Origin: Candidatus Nanoarchaeia archaeon
GTDB taxonomy: Archaea > Nanobdellota > Nanobdellia > SCGC-AAA011-G17 > JACPNG01
NCBI GenBank assembly: GCA_028714375.1
Contig: JAQTMK010000001.1
Location: forward strand, 136,988-200,987
Length of the DNA stretch: 64,000 bases
Direction of reading: 5' to 3'
Below, piece after piece: positions 12,298-60,516 of the stretch. The notes under the pieces are model-generated. The model did no database searches. It saw nothing but the letters and a program-made list of their open reading frames with translations, and had not been told where the DNA came from. Position 1 is the first letter of the stretch, and every line of letters begins with the position of its first letter. Both the position numbers and the translations under genes were made by a program.

Positions 12298-12369
12298 GGG
12301 CGAATAGTATAAAGGATAGTACACGGCTTTGCGGAAGCTGGAATCGGGGTTCAATTCCTCGTTCGCCCG
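12298..12369 (+). tRNA. tRNA-Arg (anticodon GCG)
   Basis: Cloverleaf folded by hand: acceptor GGGCGAA/TTCGCCC, D-arm GTAT...GTAC with GG in the loop, anticodon stem CGGCT/AGCTG with loop TTGCGGA, T-arm CGGGG-TTCAATT-CCTCG, discriminator G, no encoded CCA. Confidence 0.75.
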
Positions 12370-12535: not shown

Positions 12536-13291
12536 ATGGGAAATAAATATTTAGAATGGATTGGAACTGGTTCAGGATTAAATTTTACATTAGGAAACAC
12601 TTCTTTTTTAATCAAAGGAGGAGAGAGAATCCTTTTAGTTGATTGTGGATATACAGTTCCATTAGAATTAATGAAATCTGGACAATTAAAAGATATAACA
12701 GATGTTATTCTGACTCATACCCATGCTGACCATATTGGAGGGATTGAAGGGTTTGCTTATATGAATTACTTTGCTTTTAAAAAAAGAGAAGACCAAAGGC
12801 CAAATCTTTACATTGCGACAGAAAAATTTGCACAGAGATTATGGAATAATTCTCTTAAGGGAGGATTAGAAAAGATACAAGATGAGGAGAATATCCCTCA
12901 AAATGTAACTCTTGATACTTACTTCAAGATCCATATTGGGAAACAGATAGATATTTTAGGATTACCAACTGCAACATTATTTCCAGCATCCCATGTCCAG
13001 GGAATGGAGAATTATGGAGTAAGTTTTGACAACGGAGTTTGGTATTCTGGGGATTCTTTAGACTTACCCAAAAACAATTCAAAACTAATTTTTCAAGATT
13101 GCCAATTCTACGAAACTATAGCCGATGTTCATGTATCTTATAACAGATTAAAACAAGAATTGTCTCCAGACGTTAAAGCCAAAACATATCTTGTTCATCT
13201 TGGTGGTGGTTGGGAACAAAAAAATCCAAAGGCAGATGGTTTTGCAGGATTTGTTATGCCTAAACAAAGATTTGATCTTGAATCCCTATAA
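12536..13291 (+). CDS. metallo-beta-lactamase-fold hydrolase
   Basis: LTHTHADHIGG (HxHxDH) motif with downstream His/Asp ligands. Confidence 0.75.
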   Translation: MGNKYLEWIGTGSGLNFTLGNTSFLIKGGERILLVDCGYTVPLELMKSGQLKDITDVILTHTHADHIGGIEGFAYMNYFAFKKREDQRPNLYIATEKFAQRLWNNSLKGGLEKIQDEENIPQNVTLDTYFKIHIGKQIDILGLPTATLFPASHVQGMENYGVSFDNGVWYSGDSLDLPKNNSKLIFQDCQFYETIADVHVSYNRLKQELSPDVKAKTYLVHLGGGWEQKNPKADGFAGFVMPKQRFDLESL

Positions 13292-13368: not shown

Positions 13369-13608
13369 ATGGAACTAAGCTTAATTGGTCTGATTGTTCT
13401 TGTATTAGGTTGGATAATCCAGTTAATTCATTCCTGGAAAAACAACCACGAAATAAGACAATGGTTTTTAATCTTTTACATGGTTGGTGTTGGATTATTA
13501 GTTATAGATGGCTTCCAAAATAATTTAAAAGAATTAGCAATCCTAAACCTAGTCAGTTTGATTGTTGCTGGATTAATCCTGTTAAGATTAAAATTCAGGA
13601 AGAAATAA
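13369..13608 (+). CDS. small two-TM membrane protein (hypothetical)
   Basis: 79 aa, two hydrophobic helices; GGAGG-like ribosome-binding site (TTGGAGGTG) 7 nt upstream. Confidence 0.4.
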   Translation: MELSLIGLIVLVLGWIIQLIHSWKNNHEIRQWFLIFYMVGVGLLVIDGFQNNLKELAILNLVSLIVAGLILLRLKFRKK

Positions 13609-14665
13609 TTCTGTTTTTTATTGTTATTTTTGTTTTGCTTAATTTGATTCTTTTTTCCGCTTCACTTAATATCAACTTTAGCATTTCAGGATAGGAAAAA
13701 TTTTCAAGTGAAAACATCGTTGACAGATGACTGTCCCAGCACCATCCAGGATTTGGGTTTACTTCAAGTAATTTTGGTTCTCCGTTTTCATTTAATCTCC
13801 AGTCAAATCTTGCATAGTCTTTGCACTTCATGTATTGGAACATTTTTAATGAACCATCTTCAACTAGTTTTTTAGTGGATTTATCCAAGATTACAGGAAC
13901 AGATTTGATACATTTCCAGTAAGCAGATTCTGGTTCCCACTTTGCTTCACTTCCGCATATTTTTGGTAAATCTTCTGGCAGCGTGCCGTAATCTTCCTTA
14001 ATCATTGGCAAAACCTTGTAAGAATAAGGTGGATTTCCTAATATTCCAACCATAACATCATCACCGCTTAAGAATTCCTCAATCAAGATTTTTCCATTGT
14101 ATTTGAATTTGGTTCTTAATGTTAAAATTGCTTTATTTAATTCTTTATTATTTTTTACAACACTGTCTTTATTTATTCCAAAACTTCCATCACCCTGTGC
14201 AGGTTTTACAATTACAGGAAAACTAATTTCTTCATCGATTTCATTCTCATTTTCTTTAAGTAAATAAAATTTAGCAGTTGGAACTCCAAGTTTTTCTGCA
14301 TAAACTTTGACTAGATGTTTGTCATAACAGGTAACCAATCCCTCTCTGCTTGCACCAGTGTAAGGAATTTCTAATCTGGTTAATAAATCAGGAATGTCTG
14401 CTTCATGTTTTGGGTCATTGTTAAATCCTTCATCGCATAAATTAAAAACAAAATCAGTATTGTCTTTGAGTTTAATCAAATCTTCTTCAAGAGTATCATG
14501 ATTGTCTAGAAAAGTAAAATTAATGTTTTCAATTTTATTTAGAGCTTCTTTTAATTTACGGATGGTCTCAAAATCATCCTCATCAAAAATTCCGCCAGGT
14601 TTTACTGGATCAGATTTTCTTGGGTCTCCGAGTATCACGACAATATTTTTTATCAATGTTAACAC
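13595..14665 (-). CDS. ATP-grasp enzyme, D-alanine--D-alanine ligase-like
   Basis: N-terminal Rossmann-like ILGDPRKSD, central ATP-grasp region, C-terminal LLEVNPNPGW motif typical of the Ddl family. Confidence 0.55.
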   Translation of the reverse strand: MLTLIKNIVVILGDPRKSDPVKPGGIFDEDDFETIRKLKEALNKIENINFTFLDNHDTLEEDLIKLKDNTDFVFNLCDEGFNNDPKHEADIPDLLTRLEIPYTGASREGLVTCYDKHLVKVYAEKLGVPTAKFYLLKENENEIDEEISFPVIVKPAQGDGSFGINKDSVVKNNKELNKAILTLRTKFKYNGKILIEEFLSGDDVMVGILGNPPYSYKVLPMIKEDYGTLPEDLPKICGSEAKWEPESAYWKCIKSVPVILDKSTKKLVEDGSLKMFQYMKCKDYARFDWRLNENGEPKLLEVNPNPGWCWDSHLSTMFSLENFSYPEMLKLILSEAEKRIKLSKTKITIKNRIISS

Positions 14666-40190: not shown

Positions 40191-40233
40191 TTTGCTGTGA
40201 TTTAATTTCAAAACCATGGAGGCCCCAATAAAA

Positions 40234-43191
40234 ATGAAAAAAAATATTTTTTTAATGTCTTTACTCTTTGCTCTGTCTTTGAGTTTAGTCTCAGCCGCAA
40301 CAACCTATCAGGTAGATAATAGAAATCTTGGTGGGAATGTTTGTAGTGATTTAGGAAATGAAACCTATTTTTGTACAATCCAGGCAGCTGTGAACTATTC
40401 AAGCAATGGTGATACTATTAATGTTTTAGGCGGAACATATTCAGAACAGATTATAATAAATAAAAATCTTAAACTAAAAAATACTGGAGATGCAAAAATT
40501 AATGCACCAGATTCAAGAAAAACATTTACATTTACAGAATCAACTAGCACATGGGACCCAATCATAATCGCTTATGGTGGATCTGAAATAAGTGGGGCAA
40601 TTTCAGGAAATGATGTTGTTAATGTTGATATTGAAGGTTTTGAAATTGATGGTTTAGATAAAACTCCATCCGGAAGATATGTTGGAATTTTATACAGAAA
40701 TGTTAAAGGAAACGTTAAAGAAAATACGATTGGACATATGAAATTAGATGGATATGAAACTTTTGGAGTTTCTGTTTACGGTAAATCGGATGTAGTAGTA
40801 GAAGGGAATGATATAAGTGGTTATTCTAGAGGTGGAATTGGAATAAATGGGGACTTAGGAACAAATCCAGATCCAAAAGCAATGGTTAAAAATAATAAAG
40901 TTTCAGGTCCAGGACTAGGAGTTCCAGTAACCTGGGCAGCAAACGGTATCCAATTTGGATATGGTACTACCGGAACAATCGAAAGTAACGAAGTAATTGG
41001 AAGCGGATGGTTGGGAGACGAATGGAGTGGAACCGGAATTTTAGTTGTTGATTGTGATGGAGTAAATATAATCTCTAATAAAGTATATAGCAATGAGCAA
41101 GCAATAGGTGTTGGTGAATTTTATGTTTCAGCTTCAAACATCGAAATAACCGGTAACGAGATTTATGATAATGAATGGGGGATTTCAATATTTAATGATA
41201 TAGAAGATGTAATCGTAACAGATAATAAAATTTTAAATTCAGTTTATGATGGTATTGATGTTTATAGTTATGGTTTAACAAGTTGGAGGGATTATACCGG
41301 CCATTATCCTTCAAAAGTTAAAATAAACTTTAATGAAATTATTGGGAATGGACCTGATGCACTTTGGGTTGAAGTTCCAGCTAATGAAACAATCGATGCA
41401 AAAAATAATTACTGGGGAGTTTGCGATGGTCCTTCTGGAATTGGTCCAGGAACCGGAGATAATATTAATGTAGTTTCTGGTAATGTAGACTATACCCCAT
41501 GGTTGGGAGTTTGTATTGATCATCAATCAATAGAAGACAATTGTGTTTTAGAAGTAGAAGATGTTGAATTCAAAACAAATCTTTCAAGTGTTGATTCATG
41601 TTCAACACCTTCAGTATGGTTACAGACAGATTCAAAAAATTATACTGCATCTAAACAATCAGGATTTTATGTTGCAACAATACCTGGTTCTGATTTAGTT
41701 GGTGGTTCCACAGTATCATGGAAGTTTGTTGTTGAAGATTGTGAAGATCATTTAGATGAAGGAGCAATTCAATCATTTTATGTAAACCAACTCACCGTTT
41801 TAACAGTAAATCCAGAAGATGCAGATGGACAAAATGGATGGTATGTAACAGAACCATTATTTACATTAAACAATCCAAGCAATTCAACAGCAGTTATAAG
41901 TTATAGATGGGATGGTCTAGGACCATTTGTATATAATGGAACTGAATTTGGGGTAGCAGATGCACCAAATGATGGAGATGGTTATTTAGAATTAACTTAC
42001 TGGTCAAATATTTGTGGGGGAGAACCAGAGCAGGTAAAAGAATTAAATGTGGATAGATTAGTCCCAACCATATCTGATGTTTATCCAGAAGAATCAAGCA
42101 TGATATCTACAATAAATCCAAAAATATCAGCATTTATTGATAAACAACAGCATCAGACAAATTCACAGATAAATGTTTCATCAATAATATTAACTGTAGA
42201 TGGAACAGTAATTAATGAATTTGAATATAGCAGCAACATAAGAAAAATAAATTATAATTCAAATTTAACTGAAGGATTCCACGAAGTGAAACTGGAAGTT
42301 TCAGATCTAGCAGGAAATAAAGGAGAAAAAATCTGGAACTTTACAATAAACACAAATCCAGTTGAATTAAGAATACTTAATCCACCTGAAGGAATCTTGA
42401 ACAGTAAAAGACAATTATTGAACATATCGCTGGGAGAAAAAGTAAAAAGTTTAGGATACACAGACTCAATTGATTCAACTCCAACTTACAAAAACTTATG
42501 CAGAAATTGTGATCATTATGATAAAATGAAGGCATTTAGCGAAGGTCAGCATAATCTGACAGTAACTGCAGTAAGTTATTCAGGAGCTGAATTTAATCAG
42601 AGTGTATCCTTCTTTATAGATTCAATCGCACCAAAGATACCATACACAACTCCAAAAGGAGGAACATTTGGTAACGGAAACTTTACAGTAAGATACACTG
42701 AAGAAAATCCTGTTGAAGTAAATCTATATTATGATTACAATCAGACAGGAGTTTTCCAGAAAGTAACAAAAACAGATTGTCCAGCTGGAAAAAATAAGGA
42801 CTGTACCTTTGTTGTAGAAGGAGTAATGAATGAAAAATTAGATTATTACTTTGAAATCATCGATATTTCAGGATTTAACACAACATCAAAAGTAATAACC
42901 ACAACAATGGATACCATACCACCAGTGATGACTAAGTTAGGTTCACCTTTGAAGGAAACAAACTATACAAAGAAGGTGCCATTTGATATTGAAGTTAGTG
43001 AACCCGTAGATATTTATTACAAAGATAACAAAGGAAAAAATCCAGACAGATGGACAAGGTTAGCTTCAAAAGTAACAGAGTATAAAAAGTCAGTAAGTTT
43101 CAGCAAAGGCCCTCATGAAGTTGAAATAAAAATAATTGACAAGGCAGGAAATACTGAAATTACCGACCCAATAAACTTTGAGGTTATCTAA
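40234..43191 (+). CDS. large surface protein with parallel beta-helix (pectate-lyase-like) repeats and Ig-like modules
   Basis: Signal peptide; repeated beta-helix-like NxxSG/GxGI segments (NDISGYSRGGIGINGDLG, NKVSGPG, ITGNEIYDNEWGISIFN); C-terminal modules homologous to 39090-40190. Confidence 0.6.
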   Translation: MKKNIFLMSLLFALSLSLVSAATTYQVDNRNLGGNVCSDLGNETYFCTIQAAVNYSSNGDTINVLGGTYSEQIIINKNLKLKNTGDAKINAPDSRKTFTFTESTSTWDPIIIAYGGSEISGAISGNDVVNVDIEGFEIDGLDKTPSGRYVGILYRNVKGNVKENTIGHMKLDGYETFGVSVYGKSDVVVEGNDISGYSRGGIGINGDLGTNPDPKAMVKNNKVSGPGLGVPVTWAANGIQFGYGTTGTIESNEVIGSGWLGDEWSGTGILVVDCDGVNIISNKVYSNEQAIGVGEFYVSASNIEITGNEIYDNEWGISIFNDIEDVIVTDNKILNSVYDGIDVYSYGLTSWRDYTGHYPSKVKINFNEIIGNGPDALWVEVPANETIDAKNNYWGVCDGPSGIGPGTGDNINVVSGNVDYTPWLGVCIDHQSIEDNCVLEVEDVEFKTNLSSVDSCSTPSVWLQTDSKNYTASKQSGFYVATIPGSDLVGGSTVSWKFVVEDCEDHLDEGAIQSFYVNQLTVLTVNPEDADGQNGWYVTEPLFTLNNPSNSTAVISYRWDGLGPFVYNGTEFGVADAPNDGDGYLELTYWSNICGGEPEQVKELNVDRLVPTISDVYPEESSMISTINPKISAFIDKQQHQTNSQINVSSIILTVDGTVINEFEYSSNIRKINYNSNLTEGFHEVKLEVSDLAGNKGEKIWNFTINTNPVELRILNPPEGILNSKRQLLNISLGEKVKSLGYTDSIDSTPTYKNLCRNCDHYDKMKAFSEGQHNLTVTAVSYSGAEFNQSVSFFIDSIAPKIPYTTPKGGTFGNGNFTVRYTEENPVEVNLYYDYNQTGVFQKVTKTDCPAGKNKDCTFVVEGVMNEKLDYYFEIIDISGFNTTSKVITTTMDTIPPVMTKLGSPLKETNYTKKVPFDIEVSEPVDIYYKDNKGKNPDRWTRLASKVTEYKKSVSFSKGPHEVEIKIIDKAGNTEITDPINFEVI

Positions 43192-43341: not shown

Positions 43342-43998
43342 ATGAGGAAAATAACAGTATTCATATTGGTTTTAGCATTGCTTTTGATATTTCCAGTAAG
43401 CGCAAAACTTACGGGACAAGCTAGAGGACAGGCTGTAATCAACGTTGACGTTGATGAAGGTAGCACAGAAGTAATCTCAAGAACTGTTTGGGTTAAGAAT
43501 GTAAATGATATTCCGGTTAATGTCGCAATTATTGCAATAGATGATATTGAAGACAGAACAGAAATAGAAGAACCTTCTTTTATACTTCAGCCAGGCCAGG
43601 AAAAAACAGTTAAATATTTATTGAAAATTTCCCAGCCAGGAAATTATTATGGAAAATTAAATATTGGTTTTTCTCCAGCAGATGGTTCTAAAGAAAATGG
43701 AGTAGGAATCTCATTAGCTATAACCGTTATTGCAGATGGTGAGGGTGAAGAATTTGTAAGTCCAGAACCTAATACTGAAGAAATCCCAGAAGATACAGAA
43801 GAAACTCCAGAAGACACAACCGATATCCCTCAGGAAGAAGACACAACTGATGGAGAAGGAGTAGATGTATTCGGAGGAGGACAAAATCCTGTAACACCTA
43901 AAACAAACATAAATTGGCCACTCATAATTTTCATAGGTTTACTTTTAATCGTAATCGCAGCAGGGGTGTTTGCTTTTTTAAGGGGAGGAAAAAAATGA
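43342..43998 (+). CDS. secreted protein with C-terminal TM anchor and basic tail
   Basis: Signal peptide; acidic PEDTEETPEDT linker; C-terminus WPLIIFIGLLLIVIAAGVFAFLRGGKK. Confidence 0.5.
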   Translation: MRKITVFILVLALLLIFPVSAKLTGQARGQAVINVDVDEGSTEVISRTVWVKNVNDIPVNVAIIAIDDIEDRTEIEEPSFILQPGQEKTVKYLLKISQPGNYYGKLNIGFSPADGSKENGVGISLAITVIADGEGEEFVSPEPNTEEIPEDTEETPEDTTDIPQEEDTTDGEGVDVFGGGQNPVTPKTNINWPLIIFIGLLLIVIAAGVFAFLRGGKK

Positions 43999-46900
43999 AG
44001 AAAGTAGTTTTTTTATTTGCTTTGTTATTAACAGTTTCATGTGTAAGTGCTTGGGATGTAGCTTATGTGGTTACTAACCCATCAACTGCAGCACAGGAAC
44101 CAATAACAGTGTTGGAAAACGAGGGATATAATGTAGAAGTTATTGATGATTCTGCATTACTAACAACAAATTTCAGTAATTATGATTTAATTGTTGTTGC
44201 AGATCAGAACTTTCCATATCCAGAAAGAATTCCAGTAACCTCCCACAGTACAGTAATTTTAAGTTCTAATGATGGTGATGTTTTAACTTGGGGTCTAAGT
44301 ACCTCAGTTGCAGATCAGACAAGCAGTCAACCAGAAAAAGTAGTTAATAATGATCCTACCAGTCCAATAACAGAAGGACTGCCCTCTGAAATTCAGGTTT
44401 ATACAACTGGAGGAGTTTCAGCAGGCCTGTCATACTTACCTTCTTCAGATAAAGCTGGAAAAATGAAGGTTATTGCTTCAACTTATTTCAGCAGCAATAT
44501 AAATGATGGAATAATTGCAACAGCATCTCCAGGAGATGTTTTAAAAATCTACAATAGTGGTTGGAAATACACAACCGTAAATTCAAGAATATGTTATTTT
44601 GGTATTAATACTCCAGCATACTGGACAAGCGATGCAGAAACATTATTCATTAATTGTGCAACATGGTCAGCATTAGGAGTAGATAATGATAATGATGGTT
44701 TCTACTCAGATGAAGACTGTGATGATACAAACGCAGATATTAATCCAGATGCAGAAGAAACCTGTAACGGAGTAGATGATAATTGTGATTTAATTATCGA
44801 TGAAGAAAACTCATTAGGATGTACTGATTATTACTATGATTTTGATCAGGATACTTATGGAGTATTCTTATCTAAGTGTTTATGTTCACCAAACGCATTT
44901 TATGATTCAGAAACAAACGATGACTGTAATGATAACAATATAAATATACATCCAGACGCACAGGAATTGTGTAATGGAATAGACGATAGTTGTGATGATA
45001 TCATTGATGAAGACTTAATTGAACCTTTGTCAGACAACCAAAAAGGAATCTGTAAAAATTCTGTAAAAATCTGTGAAGGAACTTCAGGATGGACAAATCC
45101 AGATTACACAGAACTGGAAGATTATGAAAATCCAGAATTAAGTTGTGATGGTTTAGATAATAACTGTGACGGAACAGTTGATGAAGATTTAGCAACAACT
45201 TATTATAAAGATTTAGATGAAGATACCTATGGAAGTAAAACAGTAACAATCCAGTCTTGTGATATTGTGGATGGTTATGTTGAAAACAATGATGATTGTA
45301 ATGATAATAATGCAGATATAAGTCCAGACGGAATTGAAGAATGTAATGGTATTGATGACAACTGTGACGGAGCCATCGATGAAGATGATATCTGTGAAAT
45401 AACAATTTATTATTGTGATGCAGATGCAGATTTACATTTAAGCTTGACACAATCAGGAACTTGTGATACCTATAACTGTGTTCCAACAGGATGTTCAACA
45501 ACACCCGGAGATGATTGTAATGACCATAATGCAAATATGTATTTAGGAAAAGCAGAAACCTGTGATGGTCTGGACAATGACTGTGATTATGTTATTGATG
45601 ATGGTGTAAAAACAACTTATTATCAGGATAAGGATGGAGATCTTTACGGAAATTCAGGAGTAACCAAACAGGCATGTTCTGCTCCAACAGGATATTTATT
45701 GGATAAGACAGATTGTAATGATAACTTTGCTACAATTCACCCAGGAGCAACAGAAACCTGTAATGGAATTGACGATGATTGTGATGGTTTGATTGATGAG
45801 GGAGGAGTTTGTGCAGTAAAGACTTACTATTGTGATGATGATTCAGACAGTTATCTAAGCTTAGATATCTCAGGAACATGTAACACCTATAATTGTGTTC
45901 CAGAAGACTGTTCAGAAACCAGCGGAACAGATTGTAACGACGATGATTCAGATATGTATCCAGGAAACATAGAAGTTTGTGATAACTTAGACAATGACTG
46001 TGATGGTTTAATTGATGAATCTCTTACACAAATAACAACTTGTGGACTAGGAGAATGTTCAGACAACACAGGAATAGAAACTTGTTCAGCAGGAGAATGG
46101 ATTAATGATACTTGTGATCCTTATGCTGGAGCAGTAGCTGAGACTTGTGATGGTTTAGATAACAACTGTGATGGTGAAACAGATGAAGGAGTAACTACAG
46201 AATATTATGAAGATTCAGATAATGATACCTATGGAGATGCATTAAGCATTTTAGATGCATGTTCTCTTCCAGCAGGTTACTCTGTAAATAATCTAGATTG
46301 TGATGATTCAAATGCAAATATGTATCCAGGAAATCCAGAAGTTTGTGATGGTGATGATAATGATTGTGATGGAACAATTGATGAAGATTTATCTGCACCA
46401 TTAAATACAAACCAAAATGGAGTATGTTTTGAATCAAATCAAACCTGTCAGGGAGAATTAGGATGGATCGATACTTATTCAACAATCTCAACTTATCAAG
46501 AAACAGAAGAAGCCTGTGACAGTTTAGATAATGATTGTGATGGAATAGTTGATGATGGTGTTAAAACAACATTCTATGAAGATTCAGATAATGATACTTA
46601 TGGAAATGCAACAAGCTCACAGGATGTATGTACTAAACCAACAGGTTATGTTTTAGATGATACTGATTGTGATGATAGTCAAAATACAATTTATCCTGGA
46701 GCTACAGAAGTTCCATACGATTCAATTGACCAAGATTGTAGTGGTGCTGATTTAACTGATGTGGATGCAGACGGATATGATTATACTACAGATTGCAATG
46801 ATAATGATCCAGATGTAAATCCTGGAGAAACAGAATCCTGTAACACAATTGATGATGATTGTGACGGAACAATTGATGAAGAAGATTCAACAGGATGTTC

Positions 46901-48476
46901 AGTATATTATTACGATGAAGATGCTGATGCCTATGGTACAAATGATGACAAATGTTTATGTGCAATAACTGGATATTATACAGCCTCAGTAAATGGAGAC
47001 TGTGATGATACAGCAGCTTCAATTAACCCAGGAGTTTCAGAAATCATCTACAATACAATAGATGATGATTGTAATTCACATACATTAGATGATGATTTAG
47101 ACCAGGATGGATATAATCATGATGTAGATTGTGATGAAACTAATAATAAGATTCATCCAGGTGCAACAGAGATTCCATACAATGGAATAGACGAAAATTG
47201 TAATGGATGGGATTTGGTTGATGTTGATAATGATGGTTACAGTGCTCCGCAAGTTGGAGGAACAGATTGTAACGATAATAATCCAGCAATAAATCCAGGA
47301 GTTTTAGAGATTCCATACGATGGAATCGATAATGATTGTAATCCATTAACTTTGGATGAAGATTTAGATCAGGATGGCTACAACCATAATGTAGATTGTG
47401 ATGATTTAGATCCATTAGTGCACCCAGGAGCAACAGAAATTCCAAATAATGGAAAAGATGATGATTGTAATTCACATACATTAGATAATGATGCAGATCA
47501 GGATGGAATTCAGGATCCAGATGATAATTGTGTAATTCTTTACAATCCAAATCAGGAAGATCAGGACCATGACGGAATTGGAGATGTTTGTGATTCAGAC
47601 ATAGATGGCGATGGAATATTAAACGAAGATGATAATTGTATAACAACTCCAAACCCAGACCAATTAGATATTGACTCAGATGGAATTGGAGATGTCTGTG
47701 ATTTGGATAAAGATGGAGATGGAATAAATAATAATAAAGATAATTGTCAGAGCATCTTTAACCCAGAACAGGAAGATGTAGATCATGATGGTTTAGGAGA
47801 TGTCTGTGATGATGATAACGATAATGATGGAATTCCAGACAGCGAAGATAACTGTTCAGATGTTTACAATCCAGATCAGTTAGATACAGATTCAGACGGT
47901 TTGGGAGATAAATGTGATGACGATGATGATAACGATGGTCTTGATGACCACGACGATAACTGTCCAATAAATTACAACCCAGGCCAGGAAGACAGAGACA
48001 GCGATAGGAAAGGAGACGTCTGTGATGTAGATTGGGATAATGATAGTGTTCCAGATGCATCAGATAACTGTCCATATATTAAAAACAGAGACCAAGCCGA
48101 TATAGACAAAGACGGAATTGGAAACGTGTGTGATGATGTAGACGGTAGAATAAAAGAAATAATCAGCCATGAATTTAGCCTAAGCTCAGTTTCATTGGAA
48201 GATGAAAAAATAAATCCTGGTGAAAACCTTGACTTATATGTAAAATTAAAGAACAGAGGAAACCAAGACGAAGACGGTATTAAAGTTCAGGCAACAATAA
48301 TGGAGACTGGCCAAATATCAACTCCAAGTTATGTTGACCTGGAAAAAGGAGAGTCTCAGTCAACATGGATAACCATAAAAACAACCAAAATAAAACCAGG
48401 AACATACACATTAAGAGTAATGGCAGAAAACAGCAAAGAACATGATGTAGCTTACCTAACCTTTAAGGTTATGTAA
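43995..48476 (+). CDS. giant secreted protein (1493 aa): MopE-like Cys-rich metal-binding repeats, thrombospondin type-3 Ca-binding repeats, CARDB-like C-terminal domain
   Basis: Start at MKKVVFLFALLLTVSCVSA (AGGGGAGG ribosome-binding site; ATGA overlap with the upstream gene). At least 15 repeats of the type DCDDTNADINPDAEETCNGVDDNCD(G)LIDE; about 10 TSP3-like repeats (DNCxxxxNPDQxDxDxDGxGDxCD); C-terminal INPGENLDLYVKLKNRGNQDEDGIKV beta-sandwich. Confidence 0.65.
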   Translation: MKKVVFLFALLLTVSCVSAWDVAYVVTNPSTAAQEPITVLENEGYNVEVIDDSALLTTNFSNYDLIVVADQNFPYPERIPVTSHSTVILSSNDGDVLTWGLSTSVADQTSSQPEKVVNNDPTSPITEGLPSEIQVYTTGGVSAGLSYLPSSDKAGKMKVIASTYFSSNINDGIIATASPGDVLKIYNSGWKYTTVNSRICYFGINTPAYWTSDAETLFINCATWSALGVDNDNDGFYSDEDCDDTNADINPDAEETCNGVDDNCDLIIDEENSLGCTDYYYDFDQDTYGVFLSKCLCSPNAFYDSETNDDCNDNNINIHPDAQELCNGIDDSCDDIIDEDLIEPLSDNQKGICKNSVKICEGTSGWTNPDYTELEDYENPELSCDGLDNNCDGTVDEDLATTYYKDLDEDTYGSKTVTIQSCDIVDGYVENNDDCNDNNADISPDGIEECNGIDDNCDGAIDEDDICEITIYYCDADADLHLSLTQSGTCDTYNCVPTGCSTTPGDDCNDHNANMYLGKAETCDGLDNDCDYVIDDGVKTTYYQDKDGDLYGNSGVTKQACSAPTGYLLDKTDCNDNFATIHPGATETCNGIDDDCDGLIDEGGVCAVKTYYCDDDSDSYLSLDISGTCNTYNCVPEDCSETSGTDCNDDDSDMYPGNIEVCDNLDNDCDGLIDESLTQITTCGLGECSDNTGIETCSAGEWINDTCDPYAGAVAETCDGLDNNCDGETDEGVTTEYYEDSDNDTYGDALSILDACSLPAGYSVNNLDCDDSNANMYPGNPEVCDGDDNDCDGTIDEDLSAPLNTNQNGVCFESNQTCQGELGWIDTYSTISTYQETEEACDSLDNDCDGIVDDGVKTTFYEDSDNDTYGNATSSQDVCTKPTGYVLDDTDCDDSQNTIYPGATEVPYDSIDQDCSGADLTDVDADGYDYTTDCNDNDPDVNPGETESCNTIDDDCDGTIDEEDSTGCSVYYYDEDADAYGTNDDKCLCAITGYYTASVNGDCDDTAASINPGVSEIIYNTIDDDCNSHTLDDDLDQDGYNHDVDCDETNNKIHPGATEIPYNGIDENCNGWDLVDVDNDGYSAPQVGGTDCNDNNPAINPGVLEIPYDGIDNDCNPLTLDEDLDQDGYNHNVDCDDLDPLVHPGATEIPNNGKDDDCNSHTLDNDADQDGIQDPDDNCVILYNPNQEDQDHDGIGDVCDSDIDGDGILNEDDNCITTPNPDQLDIDSDGIGDVCDLDKDGDGINNNKDNCQSIFNPEQEDVDHDGLGDVCDDDNDNDGIPDSEDNCSDVYNPDQLDTDSDGLGDKCDDDDDNDGLDDHDDNCPINYNPGQEDRDSDRKGDVCDVDWDNDSVPDASDNCPYIKNRDQADIDKDGIGNVCDDVDGRIKEIISHEFSLSSVSLEDEKINPGENLDLYVKLKNRGNQDEDGIKVQATIMETGQISTPSYVDLEKGESQSTWITIKTTKIKPGTYTLRVMAENSKEHDVAYLTFKVM

Positions 48477-51457: not shown

Positions 51458-54055
51458 ATGACAAACTTCCAGAAAATAGAGCAGAAATGGCAAAAAAAGT
51501 GGGAAGATTCTGAAATTTTTAAGGTAAAGGAAGATTCTAAAAAAAAGAAGTATTATGTCTTAGAAATGTTTCCTTATCCAAGTGCTTCTGGATTGCATAT
51601 GGGACATGCACTAAACTATACAATTGGGGATATTTTTGCAAGGTTCAAAAGAATGCAGAACTATAATGTTCTATACCCTATGGGTTATGATGCTTTTGGT
51701 TTGCCTGCTGAAAATGCAGCAATAAAAGCAAAACAGCATCCTAAGGTTTACACAGAAGCTTCAATGAAAAACTTTGAAAAGCAGCAAAAATCTTTGGGTT
51801 TAAGTTATGATTGGTCAAGGATTGTAAAGACCTGTGAGTCAGAATACTACAAATGGAACCAGTATTTTTTCCTTAAGTTCTTTGAAAACGGATTAGTTTA
51901 CAGAAAAAAATCTCCTGTAAACTGGTGTCCCAAATGTGATACTGTTTTAGCTAATGAGCAGGTTCATAATGGAAGATGCTGGCGTCATGAAGATACAGAA
52001 GTGGAAATAAAACACCTAGAACAGTGGTTTATCAAAACAACAAAATATTCAGAAGAACTTTTAAAAGATATTGAAAAACTTGAATGGCCAGAAAGAATCA
52101 AGTTAATGCAGCAGAACTGGATTGGAAAAAGTTATGGAACTGAAATTAATTTTGAAATCAACGGGGAAAACTGGCCAATATTCACAACAAGAGTGGATAC
52201 AATATTTAGTGTGACATTTATGGTAGTATCAGCTCAGCATCCAAAATTAAATAGTTTAATTACTGAAAAACAAAAAAAAGAAGTTAATAATTTCCTTAAA
52301 AAAATAAAATCTGTTTCAGAAAAAGAATTAGAAGCTTTGGAAAAAGAAGGAGTGTTTACAGGAAGTTATGCTATAAATCCATTTACAGGAGAAAAAGTCC
52401 CAGTATGGATAGGAAATTTTGTTCTTGCAGACTATGGTTCTGGAATGGTAATGGCAGATGGCCATGATGTAAGAGATGTAGAATTTGCGAAAAAGTATAA
52501 TATTCCATTAAAAACTGTGATTAAACCAATCGAAAGAAAAACAAATCCTAATGAAGTTTTCACCGAAAAAGGAATCTTATACAATTCAGGAGAATTCTCG
52601 GGTTTGTCAAGTGATGAGGCAATAATAAAAATGCAAAATTGGCTTGAAAACAGAAAATTAGGTAAAAAAACTTTGCAGTATAAATTCAAAGACTGGTTAG
52701 TTTCAAGACAAAGATACTGGGGAACACCAATACCAATTATTTATTGTAATAAATGTGGTTTAGTTCCAGAAAAAAACCTTCCGGTCTTACTCCCAGAAAA
52801 AGTGGAATTTGGAAAAGGAAATCCTTTGGCTACAAATAAGAATTTTGTAAATGTTAAATGTCCAAAATGTAATTCAGATGCAAAAAGAGAAACAGACACT
52901 ATGGATACATTCTTTGATTCATCCTGGTATTACCTGAGATATTGTGATAATAAAAACCTAAAAGAAGCTTTTGAAAAGAAAAAAGCAGATTACTGGCTTC
53001 CAGTAGACCAATACATTGGTGGAGCAGAACATGCATGTATGCATTTAATCTATGCAAGATTTTTTGTAAAAGCACTAAGGGACTTAGGATTGTTGAAAAT
53101 TGATGAACCATTTACAAGATTGTTTAATCAGGGAATGCTTCATGGTGCAGACGGAAACAAAATGTCAAAATCCTTAGGCAATGTTATTGTTCCTGAAGAA
53201 GTTTCAAAAGTTTATGGAATTGATACTGCAAGATTATTCCTAGTTTCAGTTGCATCTCCTGACAAGGATATTGAATGGAGCGAAAATGGAATCCAGGGAA
53301 TGTTTAGATTTACAAACAGATTAGTGGATTATTTTGAAAACGTTAAAATCTCTAAAGCTAAAAATGAAAAATTAGAATCTGCTTCAAACAAAGCAATAAA
53401 AGAGATTACAGAGGACATTGAGAGTTTCAAATACAATATAGCAACAATAAAATTAAGGCAATTGTTTGAAAAAATCTCCAAAGAAGAAGTCAATAAAGAA
53501 ACCCTAGAAAACTTCCTTAAATTGTTAAGTCCATTTGCCCCCCATTTGGCAGAAGAGTTGTGGGAAAAGATTGGAAATAAAGGATTTATTTCTGTTTCAG
53601 AATGGCCAAAGTATGATTCTAAGAAAATCAAAATAGAATTTGAATACGAAGATGAATTTATGGAAAATATTAAGTCAGATATTAATACAGTAATAAAACT
53701 TGTAGGAAAACAGCCAAAAATAATTAAAATGTTTGTTTCAGAGTCATGGAAATATGAGGTTTATAGAAAATTAGCCAAACTAGAATCCAGAAATATAAAA
53801 GAAGTCATTGAAAAGATAATGGTTAAGGGTTATGAAAAAGAAATACCAAAAATAGCCCAATCATTTATCAAAAATCCAAATGCATTTATGAAAATTGTCT
53901 TGGATCAAAAAACAGAGATGAAGATATTGGAAGAAAACAAGAAAGAACTTGAAAGTATGTTTAATTCTAAGATTGAAATTATAAAAGCAGAAAGTTCTAA
54001 AGAAGTTAAAGCTAAACAGGCAGTACCAGGCAAGGTTGCTATTTTGATTGAATAA
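51458..54055 (+). CDS. leuS: leucyl-tRNA synthetase
   Basis: Class I HIGH (PSASGLHMGHALNY) and KMSKS motifs, CP1 editing insertion, 865 aa. Confidence 0.9.
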   Translation: MTNFQKIEQKWQKKWEDSEIFKVKEDSKKKKYYVLEMFPYPSASGLHMGHALNYTIGDIFARFKRMQNYNVLYPMGYDAFGLPAENAAIKAKQHPKVYTEASMKNFEKQQKSLGLSYDWSRIVKTCESEYYKWNQYFFLKFFENGLVYRKKSPVNWCPKCDTVLANEQVHNGRCWRHEDTEVEIKHLEQWFIKTTKYSEELLKDIEKLEWPERIKLMQQNWIGKSYGTEINFEINGENWPIFTTRVDTIFSVTFMVVSAQHPKLNSLITEKQKKEVNNFLKKIKSVSEKELEALEKEGVFTGSYAINPFTGEKVPVWIGNFVLADYGSGMVMADGHDVRDVEFAKKYNIPLKTVIKPIERKTNPNEVFTEKGILYNSGEFSGLSSDEAIIKMQNWLENRKLGKKTLQYKFKDWLVSRQRYWGTPIPIIYCNKCGLVPEKNLPVLLPEKVEFGKGNPLATNKNFVNVKCPKCNSDAKRETDTMDTFFDSSWYYLRYCDNKNLKEAFEKKKADYWLPVDQYIGGAEHACMHLIYARFFVKALRDLGLLKIDEPFTRLFNQGMLHGADGNKMSKSLGNVIVPEEVSKVYGIDTARLFLVSVASPDKDIEWSENGIQGMFRFTNRLVDYFENVKISKAKNEKLESASNKAIKEITEDIESFKYNIATIKLRQLFEKISKEEVNKETLENFLKLLSPFAPHLAEELWEKIGNKGFISVSEWPKYDSKKIKIEFEYEDEFMENIKSDINTVIKLVGKQPKIIKMFVSESWKYEVYRKLAKLESRNIKEVIEKIMVKGYEKEIPKIAQSFIKNPNAFMKIVLDQKTEMKILEENKKELESMFNSKIEIIKAESSKEVKAKQAVPGKVAILIE

Positions 54056-57076: not shown

Positions 57077-57094
57077 GGGGGAAACCCCTTTTTT
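57077..57094 (+). terminator. short GC hairpin plus T-tract
   Basis: GGGG-GAAA-CCCC followed by TTTTTT. Confidence 0.35.
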
Positions 57095-57157
57095 CCAAAG
57101 TAAGTATCTACATATATAACCTTAAGATATTTAAACTAATCCAAAATTTAAATAATA

Positions 57158-58936
57158 ATGGAATCAAGGGAAATAGCAACCAAATTTGTAAAATTCTTTG
57201 AAAAGAATAATCATAAGATTATAGAATCATCTTCCTTATTGCCTGCAGATAAAACAGTTTTATTAACAACCGCAGGTATGCAGCAGTTTGCTCCATATTT
57301 CAAAGGAGAAAAAAATCCTGAAAAAGATTTCAAATCAAGAACCTTGACTTCAGTTCAGAAATGTTTCAGGACTTCAGACTTGGAATCTGTTGGAGATGAA
57401 ACCCATCTAACTTTCTTTGAAATGTTGGGTAATTTTTCAATAGGAGATTATTTTAAAAAAGATGCAATAAATTATGCATTAAAATTTCTGATAGAAGACC
57501 TGAAATTAGATAAAAATAGAATTTCAATTACAGTTTTCGGAGGAAATAATTTAATACCTAAGGACTTTGAAGCAATTGAACTATGGAAAAAACAGGGAAT
57601 TGCAGAAGAAAAAATATTTGAGTTCGGAGAAAAGGAAAACTTTTGGGGTCCTCCAGGACCAACAGGTCCATGTGGCCCTTGTTCTGAATTGCATTATGAT
57701 TTAACTAAAAAACCATGTAATAAAGGAAAAAAATGCGGACCAAACTGTGAATGTGGCAGGTTCTTAGAAATATGGAACTTGGTATTTATGGAATATAATT
57801 TTACAGACAAACAAAAATATGAAAATCTCCCACTAAAAAATATTGATACTGGGATGGGATTGGAAAGAATTTCTATGATAGTCCAGAACAAAAAAACCCT
57901 TTTTGAAACAGATATTTTCCAGAAAATCATAAATAATATCCAAAAAATCGGATACAAAAGAACCGAAGAAGCAAAGAGGATGGAGAGAATAATTGCAGAC
58001 CATCTAAGGGGATCTGTATTCTTAATCTCCGACGCTGTTCGTCCATCAAACATAGAACAGGGTTATATTTTAAGAAGAGTCTTAAGAAAATCAATAATTT
58101 ATTTGAACTTGTTAGGAGCAGAACCAAATAAAATATTAGATTTAACAGAACTAATAATAAATGAATACAAAACCGAATACAAGGACTTACAAAAAAATAA
58201 AAAAGAAATCTTAACAATAATTAAAGAAGAAAAAAACAAGTTCCAGAAATCCTTGGATAAAGGTTTTGTGGAAATTAAGAAAATAATTGAAGATACAAAA
58301 AAACAAAAGAAAAAACAATTACCAACAAAAGAAATCTTCCAGCTGTATGATACTTATGGTTTCCCATTTGAAATAACAAAAGAAATTGCAAATAAGGAAA
58401 AATTGGAAGTTAATGAAGAAGAATTCTATGACATGTTCAAATCTCATCAGGAAGTTTCAAGAGCAGGAGTTGAAAAGAAATTTGGTGGTGTTGGGGACTT
58501 TGGAGAACAGGTAGCAAGACAGCACACAGCAACTCATTTATTGCACCAGGCTTTAAGGGAAGTCTTAGGCAAGGATGTCAGGCAGGCAGGTTCTGATTTA
58601 ACTCCAGAAAGAATAAGATTTGATTTTAATTTTAACAGGGCTTTGACAGAAGAAGAAAGAAAAAAGATTGAAGATATTGTAAATAAGAAAATAAAAGAAT
58701 CAATACCAGTAAAATGTGAAACTAAAAAGTTCAAAGATGCACAAAAAGAAGGATTCTTGGCTTTCTTCAGGGATAAATACGGAGAAGAGGTCTCAACATA
58801 TTCTATTGGGGATTTCTCCAAGGAAGTTTGTGCTGGACCTCATGTTCAAAACACAAAAGAAATAGGTAAATTTAGAATACTAAAGGAAAAATCTTCTGCT
58901 TCAGGAATAAGAAGAATTAAAGCTGTTTTGGAATAA
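57158..58936 (+). CDS. alaS: alanyl-tRNA synthetase, bacterial-type, catalytic plus editing domains only (no C-Ala domain)
   Basis: Class II AlaRS signature FFEMLGNFSIGDYFK, TAGMQQF, and editing-domain HTATHLLHQALREVLG ... CAGPHVQNT ... IRRIKAV ending at the stop. 592 aa. Confidence 0.8.
   Translation: MESREIATKFVKFFEKNNHKIIESSSLLPADKTVLLTTAGMQQFAPYFKGEKNPEKDFKSRTLTSVQKCFRTSDLESVGDETHLTFFEMLGNFSIGDYFKKDAINYALKFLIEDLKLDKNRISITVFGGNNLIPKDFEAIELWKKQGIAEEKIFEFGEKENFWGPPGPTGPCGPCSELHYDLTKKPCNKGKKCGPNCECGRFLEIWNLVFMEYNFTDKQKYENLPLKNIDTGMGLERISMIVQNKKTLFETDIFQKIINNIQKIGYKRTEEAKRMERIIADHLRGSVFLISDAVRPSNIEQGYILRRVLRKSIIYLNLLGAEPNKILDLTELIINEYKTEYKDLQKNKKEILTIIKEEKNKFQKSLDKGFVEIKKIIEDTKKQKKKQLPTKEIFQLYDTYGFPFEITKEIANKEKLEVNEEEFYDMFKSHQEVSRAGVEKKFGGVGDFGEQVARQHTATHLLHQALREVLGKDVRQAGSDLTPERIRFDFNFNRALTEEERKKIEDIVNKKIKESIPVKCETKKFKDAQKEGFLAFFRDKYGEEVSTYSIGDFSKEVCAGPHVQNTKEIGKFRILKEKSSASGIRRIKAVLE
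58905..58932 (+). repeat. 28-nt direct repeat, copy A (contains the alaS 3' end)
   Basis: GAATAAGAAGAATTAAAGCTGTTTTGGA; exact match to 60501-60528. Confidence 0.85.
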
Positions 58937-58965
58937 CTAAAAAAGAAGAAGATTGAATTAGTAAA

Positions 58966-60516
58966 ATGATAATTAAGGACATAAACAAGAGAAAAAATAT
59001 AAAGATTGCAATGGTTCAACCAGATGCAGGGCTAAGTGTCACAAATACAGATACCTATGCAGTTCCACTAGGCCTCGGTTCCATAGCGACTTATTGTAAG
59101 CAAAAACATCCAGAAATAGATATCCTGCTTATAGGAGCATATACAGATATGCCTCATGAAGAACAAATGAAAAAAATTTTGGAATATAATCCAGATATAT
59201 TGGCTATTTCATCAACAATCTCCAGTCAGGAAAATGCATATGATATTGCAAAAAAGGCAAAAGAACAAAACAAAAATATAATAATTGTATTTGGTGGAGT
59301 AAATTCTACAAGCCTATATGAACAAATATTAAAAAATCGTGATTTTGTAGATGCTATTATCTTATTTGATGGAGAAGAAGCATTCGCAGAGGTAGTCGAT
59401 AGAGTCAAGAAAAATAAATCTTTTGAGGGAATAAATAATTTAGCCTACAAAGATAAGAAGGGACTTCATATTGATAAAAATAAAATAACAATAAAAATTC
59501 CTTCATTATGTAAGATTCTTGATAAGAATCCACCAATAGATTATTCTGTGTTTGATATGAATACTTTTCTTAAAAAAACAGAGATGAGAGGATTTGGAAG
59601 AGCAATCAGTTATTTTGGGGGAAAGGGTTGTATTAAAAGAAGGGGTTTTTTTAAGGAAAAGATCTATACCCTTAAAGAATATGAAGACTTGGTAAACAAT
59701 ATGGGGGCATGTTCTTTTTGTGGGAGAAACGAATTAGGGTATAGGATATTACCTTGGTCTCTTGAAAAGGAGCTAATTAATTATTTGTACGAGAAATATG
59801 GAGTAAGAGGATTATTTAATGTACAAGATGTTGTAAGCCTGGATGAAGAACAGGGAGATCCAAAATGGAAAAACACTTGGTTTAGATTTTTCATAATGGC
59901 TGGCCAAGTAACTCAAAAAAATATTGATATTCTTAAGAAAAAATATTCTCCAAACTTAGTATTACAAATAGGGGTAGAATCTGTTGATCCAAATATGCTC
60001 AAAGAATTTGGAAAGTCGCCAGAATTTACCAGAGAATATTACTTAAAAAATTTAGACTTAATGGAAAAAAATGGGATTCAGGCCCATTATACCTTTGTTT
60101 TGGGAGGGAGTAATGAAACTAGAGAATCCCTCAAAAAAACTGGAGATTTTATTAAAGAAATTGTAAAGAGAAAAAACGTAACTTGGATAGGCGCAAGCCC
60201 ATTAATTGTGCTTCCAGGATCGCCATATTTCAGAATGCTTAGCGAGAAAGAAAAAAAACTAAAGGATAAAGATTTATTTGATGTCTCTGAATTGCATAGA
60301 TTATTCCTTCGTCATTTTGCACCAAAAATCACAAGAGAAGATGTATTAAACATTATTAAAGATTGTTTTAGTTATGCTAAATTAATAAGAAGCGACTTGA
60401 TATTAGATGGAAAAGGCTTAACCAAAGAAGAAGAGAAATTTGTGGGCTCATATAGGCCATACACACATAAAGAAGGTTCGTGGACATTCAATTTTGTCCA
60501 GAATAAGAAGAATTAA
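58966..60516 (+). CDS. B12-binding-domain / radical-SAM-like protein (tentative)
   Basis: N-terminal IAMVQPD...YAVPLGLGSIATY resembles the cobalamin-binding domain of B12-dependent radical SAM enzymes. Cys cluster GKGC...CSFC is non-canonical, so the assignment is weak. Confidence 0.4.
   Translation: MIIKDINKRKNIKIAMVQPDAGLSVTNTDTYAVPLGLGSIATYCKQKHPEIDILLIGAYTDMPHEEQMKKILEYNPDILAISSTISSQENAYDIAKKAKEQNKNIIIVFGGVNSTSLYEQILKNRDFVDAIILFDGEEAFAEVVDRVKKNKSFEGINNLAYKDKKGLHIDKNKITIKIPSLCKILDKNPPIDYSVFDMNTFLKKTEMRGFGRAISYFGGKGCIKRRGFFKEKIYTLKEYEDLVNNMGACSFCGRNELGYRILPWSLEKELINYLYEKYGVRGLFNVQDVVSLDEEQGDPKWKNTWFRFFIMAGQVTQKNIDILKKKYSPNLVLQIGVESVDPNMLKEFGKSPEFTREYYLKNLDLMEKNGIQAHYTFVLGGSNETRESLKKTGDFIKEIVKRKNVTWIGASPLIVLPGSPYFRMLSEKEKKLKDKDLFDVSELHRLFLRHFAPKITREDVLNIIKDCFSYAKLIRSDLILDGKGLTKEEEKFVGSYRPYTHKEGSWTFNFVQNKKN

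Follow-up and report, generated by a model that had tools for sequence, protein, structure and literature searches.

Alanyl-tRNA synthetases (AlaRS) that consist only of catalytic, ATL and editing domains, with neither the cradle-loop barrel nor C-Ala, have been defined as 'small-AlaRS' in a study entitled 'Common evolutionary origins of the bacterial glycyl tRNA synthetase and alanyl tRNA synthetase' (bioRxiv 10.1101/2023.05.29.542759). That study reported them from the candidate phyla radiation (CPR), Thermoplasmatota, DPANN and Asgard, and inferred bacterium-to-archaeon horizontal transfer from bacteria-specific insertions together with a maximum-likelihood tree. In the literature searched the term is used only there, and the exceptions cited in the AlaRS literature are limited to N. 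equitans, C. elegans mitochondria and Tupanvirus. Here we describe the alaS gene in a stretch of 64,000 nucleotides (the window) of contig JAQTMK010000001.1, from a Candidatus Nanoarchaeia archaeon. We consider it very probable, on the comparisons set out below, that this gene encodes a complete, functional small-AlaRS, acquired from CPR bacteria in its short form by the ancestor of a narrow Nanoarchaeia lineage and inherited vertically at a conserved locus since then. As both the class and its transfer to DPANN are already known, the case is correct without being new, and belongs to a class that is under-appreciated; what is added here is a Patescibacteria-to-narrow-Nanoarchaeia donor-recipient pair, synteny, residue-level conservation and a Gly-rich motif retained at the domain junction.

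The gene is the open reading frame (ORF) at 57158-58936 (+), which starts with ATG and encodes 592 aa. A deposited and correctly named GenBank protein, 'alanine--tRNA ligase [Candidatus Nanoarchaeia archaeon]', is 100% identical to its product. The features of the locus, with the evidence for each, are:

57158..58936, + strand: alaS, small-AlaRS, complete gene of 592 aa plus stop (ORF, NF002436 match, identical GenBank protein)
57158..57907, + strand: class II catalytic (aminoacylation) domain, residues ~1-250, boundary approximate (Pfam tRNA-synt_2c, invariant residues, superposition)
57908..58462, + strand: helical tRNA-recognition (ATL) domain, residues ~251-435 (alignment, N298/D398, model)
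58463..58507, + strand: junction, residues 436-450, in place of a ~105-aa beta-barrel (E. coli alignment, short-form conservation)
58508..58933, + strand: editing core, AlaX-S-like, residues 451-592 (tRNA_SAD, invariant residues, Foldseek)
58937..58965, no strand: 29-nt spacer from the alaS stop to a B12-binding/radical-SAM gene (sequence, downstream Pfam, negative tblastn)

Pfam assigns tRNA-synt_2c to residues 5-450 of the product (E 2.8e-134) and tRNA_SAD to residues 545-587 (E 7e-17). The initial annotation, made from the sequence alone, had proposed a bacterial-type AlaRS without C-Ala, horizontally acquired, in an otherwise archaeal informational context. The strings that it quoted, TTAGMQQFAPYFKG (residues 37-50) and TFFEMLGNFSIGDYFKK (residues 85-101), are present in the 592-aa product as described, as are the HxxxH and CxxxH editing-site motifs (H456-TAT-H460 and C558-AGP-H562) and the C-terminal end, ...SGIRRIKAVLE, which is followed directly by the stop codon at 58934-58936.

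Alignment with canonical bacterial AlaRS (TIGR00344; E. coli AlaS) showed that the catalytic, tRNA-recognition and editing-core modules are homologous, with identical active-site, N/D tRNA-reading and HxxxH/CxxxH residues; residues up to ~435 align with the A. aeolicus and E. coli catalytic fragments. Two segments of E. coli AlaS (876 aa) have no counterpart in the window protein: the ~105-aa beta-barrel ahead of the editing core (~443-554), and the coiled-coil linker plus C-Ala (701-876), the last residue of the window protein aligning with E. coli ~700. In numbers, 6 residues occupy the barrel region as compared with 101–127 aa in 22 long bacterial AlaRS, and the C-terminal tail measures 0 as compared with 170–190 aa. 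The absence of C-Ala that had been noted at the outset is thus real, while the deletion of the barrel had been overlooked. At the junction a Gly-rich motif, K441-F-G-G-V-G446, is kept and aligns with GGQVG of E. coli; among 63 short forms, K441, F442 and G444 never vary and G443 and G446 hardly do. An AlphaFold model of the protein (predicted local distance difference test, pLDDT, 89) contains three domains, with an all-helical ATL region, and its only segment of pLDDT <50 is residues 436-445, at the junction.

This architecture does not differ from that of the small-AlaRS class (10.1101/2023.05.29.542759; NF002436/PRK01584): the same three domains are present and the same two modules missing. 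Archaeal-type AlaRS (TIGR03683; A. fulgidus 3WQY, P. horikoshii 2ZZE) have the same function and, in the modules held in common, the same overall fold; however, they carry the barrel and a dimerisation/C-Ala domain, and the window protein has neither. The Tupanvirus mini-AlaRS and C. elegans mitochondrial AlaRS (PMC10036535, PMC8887476) likewise function without a normal C-Ala, although the former also lacks the editing domain and the N/D pair, both of which the window protein has, and the latter retains a residual C-Ala. The closest structural relative of the editing module (~451-592) is AlaX-S (P. horikoshii, 1V7O/1WNU), which similarly has no N-terminal barrel and whose entire fold the module covers at a target-normalised TM-score (TMt) of ~0.85 (0.83–0.86 in Foldseek, as compared with only 0.53 for AlaX-M). 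AlaX-S is free-standing, whereas the window module is fused in cis to the synthetase, with the conserved Gly-rich motif ahead of it.

Other combinations of these modules were encountered among the relatives. AlaRS of 791 and 758 aa, encoded respectively in Margulisiibacteriota (L005, 3001-4806) and Omnitrophota (L007, 3001-4755), have lost the beta-barrel, with 16–26 residues in its place, and have kept a C-terminal tail of 171–187 aa; this intermediate architecture shows that the barrel and C-terminal deletions are separable. Two Patescibacteria proteins, P0020 (963 aa) and P0048 (936 aa), are small-AlaRS fused to a PF03706 domain, which we take to be the LPG-synthase/MprF-type transmembrane region. 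If that identity holds, the fusions would hint at aminoacyl-lipid (alanyl-phosphatidylglycerol-like) synthases in CPR.

A protein this short could come from a gene in decay, in which a nonsense mutation or frameshift had cut off a long AlaRS and left C-Ala remnants downstream, and its shortness is all that speaks for this. The ATG of the unrelated B12-binding/radical-SAM gene (58966-60516, +) follows the stop codon after only 29 nt, so that there is neither room nor frame for a C-terminal continuation of alaS. A frameshifted continuation, which the initial annotation had named as one of two findings that would overturn its proposal, was looked for and not found: when the barrel and C-terminal segments of the 22 long AlaRS were compared by tblastn with the six frames of the window, no remnant was detected in any frame, the best match (E 0.02) being a spurious 27-aa stretch. 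Moreover, the same end point is found in more than 100 homologues and in the 595-position NF002436 model. Truncation is refuted by these data, and we give it practically no credence. Nor does a second AlaRS or AlaX paralogue occur in the 64-kb window, as judged by tblastn with the alaS product itself against all six frames, and tRNA_SAD, DHHA1 and tRNA-synt_2c are absent, by Pfam, from the 48 other window ORFs of ≥150 aa and from the 80-aa ORF upstream of alaS. The tblastn and Pfam scans together gave no sign of a hidden C-Ala, barrel, AlaX or second alaS inside the window.

The protein passes the NCBIfam equivalog NF002436 (PRK01584; 'alanine--tRNA ligase', 595 positions) with 690.4 bits against a cutoff of 529, residues 1-592 spanning profile positions 1-593/595. 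It also passes the bacterial TIGR00344 (604.3 bits, cutoff 457.05), although only in two stretches of this 847-position model, the better being residues 5-440 on profile 1-432, so that the canonical full architecture is lacking. In contrast, the archaeal TIGR03683 gave 265.4 bits in four fragmentary stretches, far below its cutoff of 744.7. The AlaXM model NF040865 was matched at 74.9 bits (cutoff 300) over profile 93-233/234 only, below the cutoff and in a module that is fused to a synthetase. Sequence searches of the PDB returned bacterial and human AlaRS at 263–288 bits and the P. horikoshii and A. fulgidus enzymes at 139–167, and superposition of the model gave 35–39% identity with bacterial and human catalytic fragments as compared with 20–24% with archaeal AlaRS. 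Profile scores, PDB matches and fold comparisons exclude an archaeal affinity, and they support the original assignment of the enzyme to the bacterial type. A Cys-rich insertion, C187-C199, is also found in long bacterial AlaRS, those of Chloroflexi being closest, in an alignment made up of sequences other than archaeal-type ones. The C172/C193/C197/C199 cluster is likewise common to the window protein and long bacterial AlaRS; as many of the latter have it, we rejected the cluster as a novelty specific to small-AlaRS.

Relatives were sought in a collection of 5.8 billion proteins, of which the best 120 matches were considered. About 115 of these 120 are ~570–630 aa long and carry the same two Pfam domains as the window protein. 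Two matches, at 78–100% identity, are labelled Nanoarchaeia; the other named ones among the 120, at 50–56%, are all Patescibacteria (Portnoy-, Pace-, Nealson- and Parcubacteria) or 'unclassified bacterium'. A scan of species-representative genomes for idiosyncratic peptide patterns, in which bacteria were sampled haphazardly and which served as a source of named long-form references rather than as a census, yielded one further archaeal relative, Nanoarchaeia STA_79 (83%). In a tree built by neighbour joining from 583 columns, with 100 bootstraps and E. coli as the root, the three Nanoarchaeia sequences group together (100% bootstrap), with the CPR protein P0010 as their sister (66%), inside a clade of 13 members, among them a named Patescibacteria protein (75%); the short forms as a whole make up one group (98%). 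Three of the nearest neighbours, P0004, P0007 and P0010, are encoded amid unambiguously bacterial genes, namely RpoA with its C-terminal domain, L17, FtsA, SecA, GreA and sigma-70. The nesting of the Nanoarchaeia trio inside the Patescibacteria short forms supports a horizontal origin from Patescibacteria (CPR), in agreement with the transfer first proposed. Judged from these sequences, shortness is a property of the donor family, being the standard Patescibacteria architecture, and not an event that occurred in the archaeon; this origin of the short form had also been missed in the initial annotation, which was otherwise essentially right.

The transfer might instead have run the other way, from a small-AlaRS native to DPANN, or older still, into CPR. 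Small-AlaRS have been reported from several archaeal groups (10.1101/2023.05.29.542759), and CPR are known to receive archaeal synthetases, for example arcGlyRS and TyrRS/TrpRS (PMC5370408). However, only three archaeal sequences are found, nested among more than 115 bacterial ones; the profile scores are bacterial and not archaeal, the Cys-cluster insertion is held in common with long bacterial AlaRS such as those of Chloroflexi, and the closest long forms are bacterial. We regard the reverse direction as very unlikely. Two further small-AlaRS of 589 aa (L004, 1455-3203; L038, 3001-4749), 46% identical to the window protein, fall outside the CPR clade, together with a short form from Clostridia; the label of the two MAGs that encode them, 'uncultured Methanosarcinales archaeon', is not verifiable from the 3-kb flanks, which carry Kae1/TsaD and a metallophosphoesterase.

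CPR and DPANN co-occur in groundwater-type samples and chimeric metagenome-assembled genomes (MAGs) exist, so it has to be considered whether a piece of CPR DNA was wrongly assembled or binned into the archaeal contig. The alaS gene lies inside the contig with archaeal-lineage genes on both sides, and the archaeal informational context described at the outset is there: the window encodes GINS51, aIF2-alpha, PAC2, an eRF1/Pelota-like protein, RadA and an RPA-like protein. The GC content of alaS (0.315) and that of its third codon positions (0.248) equal the values of the neighbouring genes, in a window of ~31–32% GC. Seven genes, encoding an Ig-like protein, LeuRS, a helix-turn-helix regulator, a 422-aa membrane protein, AlaRS, ParA and a 153-aa protein, occur in the same order in the independent MAG GCA_028714095.1 at 69–85% identity (alaS, 78%), and a third MAG (STA_79) has the membrane protein (86%) and AlaRS (83%) in common with the window. 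This synteny across archaeal MAGs implies that alaS was already at the locus in their common ancestor. The gene is neither an artefact nor a very recent arrival; mis-assembly is refuted by synteny, and we consider it scarcely credible.

Whether acquisition from CPR amounted to replacement is a separate matter. That this Nanoarchaeia lineage has no AlaRS besides the small one, the archaeal-type enzyme having been fully displaced by it, seems to us somewhat better than an even proposition. The alternative is that it is an accessory second copy, an addition with an auxiliary or specialised role, and that an archaeal-type AlaRS is encoded elsewhere in the genome; the window covers just 64 kb and the contig alone is at least 382 kb long, which leaves space for one. 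Against this, the syntenic locus is kept in three MAGs, where alaS diverges like its neighbours (78–83% as compared with 69–86%), the active-site and editing residues are all intact, and the window itself holds no AlaRS or AlaX paralogue. DPANN genomes are, besides, small and rarely keep redundant synthetases. An accessory role is, in our view, unlikely, though less so than any of the other alternatives considered here.

Residue conservation bears on how the enzyme may work. A comparison of 145 AlaRS showed no variation at the catalytic residues R71, W163, N207, D230 and G232. The N/D pair conserved in the tRNA-recognition domain, N303/D400 in E. coli, is matched in the alignment by N298 and D398. 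In the zinc editing site H456, H460, C558 and H562 are invariant, and T459, Q476, S479 and R585 are conserved. Both the N and the D positions are nearly invariant in long AlaRS, and among 123 short forms K or R stands at the N298 position in 39 and Q or E at the D398 position in 48; a change in tRNA recognition may have taken place in some members of the CPR family.

The likeliest reading of the sequence is that of an active and probably monomeric enzyme, inherited already short from a bacterial donor. It would activate alanine and charge tRNA-Ala, reading G3:U70 of the acceptor stem via the N298/D398 region, and its zinc-dependent editing core would clear Ser-tRNA-Ala (perhaps also Gly-tRNA-Ala) in cis. 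As the dimerisation region is gone, it would be expected to act as a monomer, without the elbow-binding module. The editing module resembles the barrel-less AlaX-S, and by analogy with AlaX-S and AlaX-M its range may be Ser only or Ser plus Gly. Since G3:U70 identity is common to the three domains of life, a bacterial AlaRS could serve archaeal tRNA-Ala without co-transfer of the tRNA. Partial systems are consistent with such an enzyme. E. coli AlaRS 1-700, which ends exactly where the window protein does, is reported to be monomeric and to aminoacylate at nearly the wild-type level (PMC4649089). Charging of a G3:U70 minihelix has been described for A. aeolicus N453, and yeast can be complemented by the Tupanvirus mini-AlaRS (both PMC10036535).

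Several points weigh against this account. The neighbour-joining tree is distance-based and was built without an archaeal-type outgroup, with moderate internal support (66–76%), and the relative orientation of domains in the model is uncertain (predicted TM-score 0.70; junction pLDDT <50). Deletion of C-Ala in E. coli AlaRS cuts tRNA affinity up to 13-fold; small-AlaRS should therefore need to compensate for its loss, and we have assumed that they do. Biochemical data on any small-AlaRS were not found in the literature searched, and the window and five related loci, searched for a tRNA-Ala gene in which G3:U70 could be read, yielded none. The monomeric state and the editing range of the window protein are inferred.

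The surroundings of alaS contain further features. Upstream, a short hairpin, GGGG(G)AAACCCC, with T6 after it (57077-57094), resembles a terminator for the preceding 80-aa zinc-ribbon ORF. The element ATATTTAAA (57127-57135) is centred ~27 nt before the alaS ATG, and a Shine-Dalgarno sequence is absent; an archaeal TATA box and a leaderless mRNA would fit this arrangement, which is weak evidence in DNA of 31% GC. The downstream B12-binding/radical-SAM gene was considered as a co-transferred partner of alaS and rejected, the window protein being only 25% identical to the one at the CPR P0007 locus; the gene is not beside alaS in the syntenic MAG L001. In all, B12-binding/radical-SAM genes lie near alaS in the window, in Nanoarchaeia STA_79 (L003, 6200-7690; 43%) and in one CPR locus (L085, 11769-13163, -; 25%), a similarity too low for co-transfer to be supported. 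LeuRS (51458-54055, +), 3 kb upstream of alaS, is also bacterial-type, with a PF13603 editing domain; unlike those of AlaRS, its named relatives at 60–70% identity are all DPANN (Woesearchaeota, Pacearchaeota, Nanoarchaeia and Diapherotrites), and this distribution of sequences points to an older, DPANN-wide acquisition.

Elsewhere in the window, a D-Ala-D-Ala-ligase-family ATP-grasp gene (13595-14665, -; PF07478, E 1.7e-27) is probably another bacterial-derived gene. A metallo-beta-lactamase-fold protein (12536-13291, +), adjoined by tRNA-Arg(GCG) at 12298-12369, scores above the Pfam cutoff for Anti-Pycsar Apyc1 (69 as compared with 50 bits) and may simply be an RNase-Z-like enzyme of that fold. 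Two very large predicted surface proteins are also encoded: one of 991 aa (40216-43191, +) with right-handed beta-helix/Big_13 domains, and one of 1520 aa (43914-48476, +) with 15 MopE metal-binding repeats, five thrombospondin type-3 repeats and CARDB. An episymbiont could plausibly use either of them to attach to its host.

The locus offers a clean case of a core translation gene passing from CPR to DPANN, two radiations of ultra-small, co-occurring episymbionts; because its G3:U70 identity element is universal, AlaRS should be especially transferable. The case contradicts the repeated claim of one prototype four-domain AlaRS throughout biology (PMC10036535, PMC8887476), as thousands of natural AlaRS enzymes do without barrel and C-Ala. 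What it chiefly still offers is a well-documented protein with which a small-AlaRS could for the first time be characterised biochemically. If the small-AlaRS is indeed the sole AlaRS of this lineage, an essential archaeal-type synthetase would have been displaced across domains by a minimal monomeric enzyme. In that case neither the barrel nor the tRNA-elbow module, held to be 'universal' in AlaRS, would be needed for cellular life in either prokaryotic domain, and core translation genes would be exchanged between CPR bacteria and DPANN archaea.

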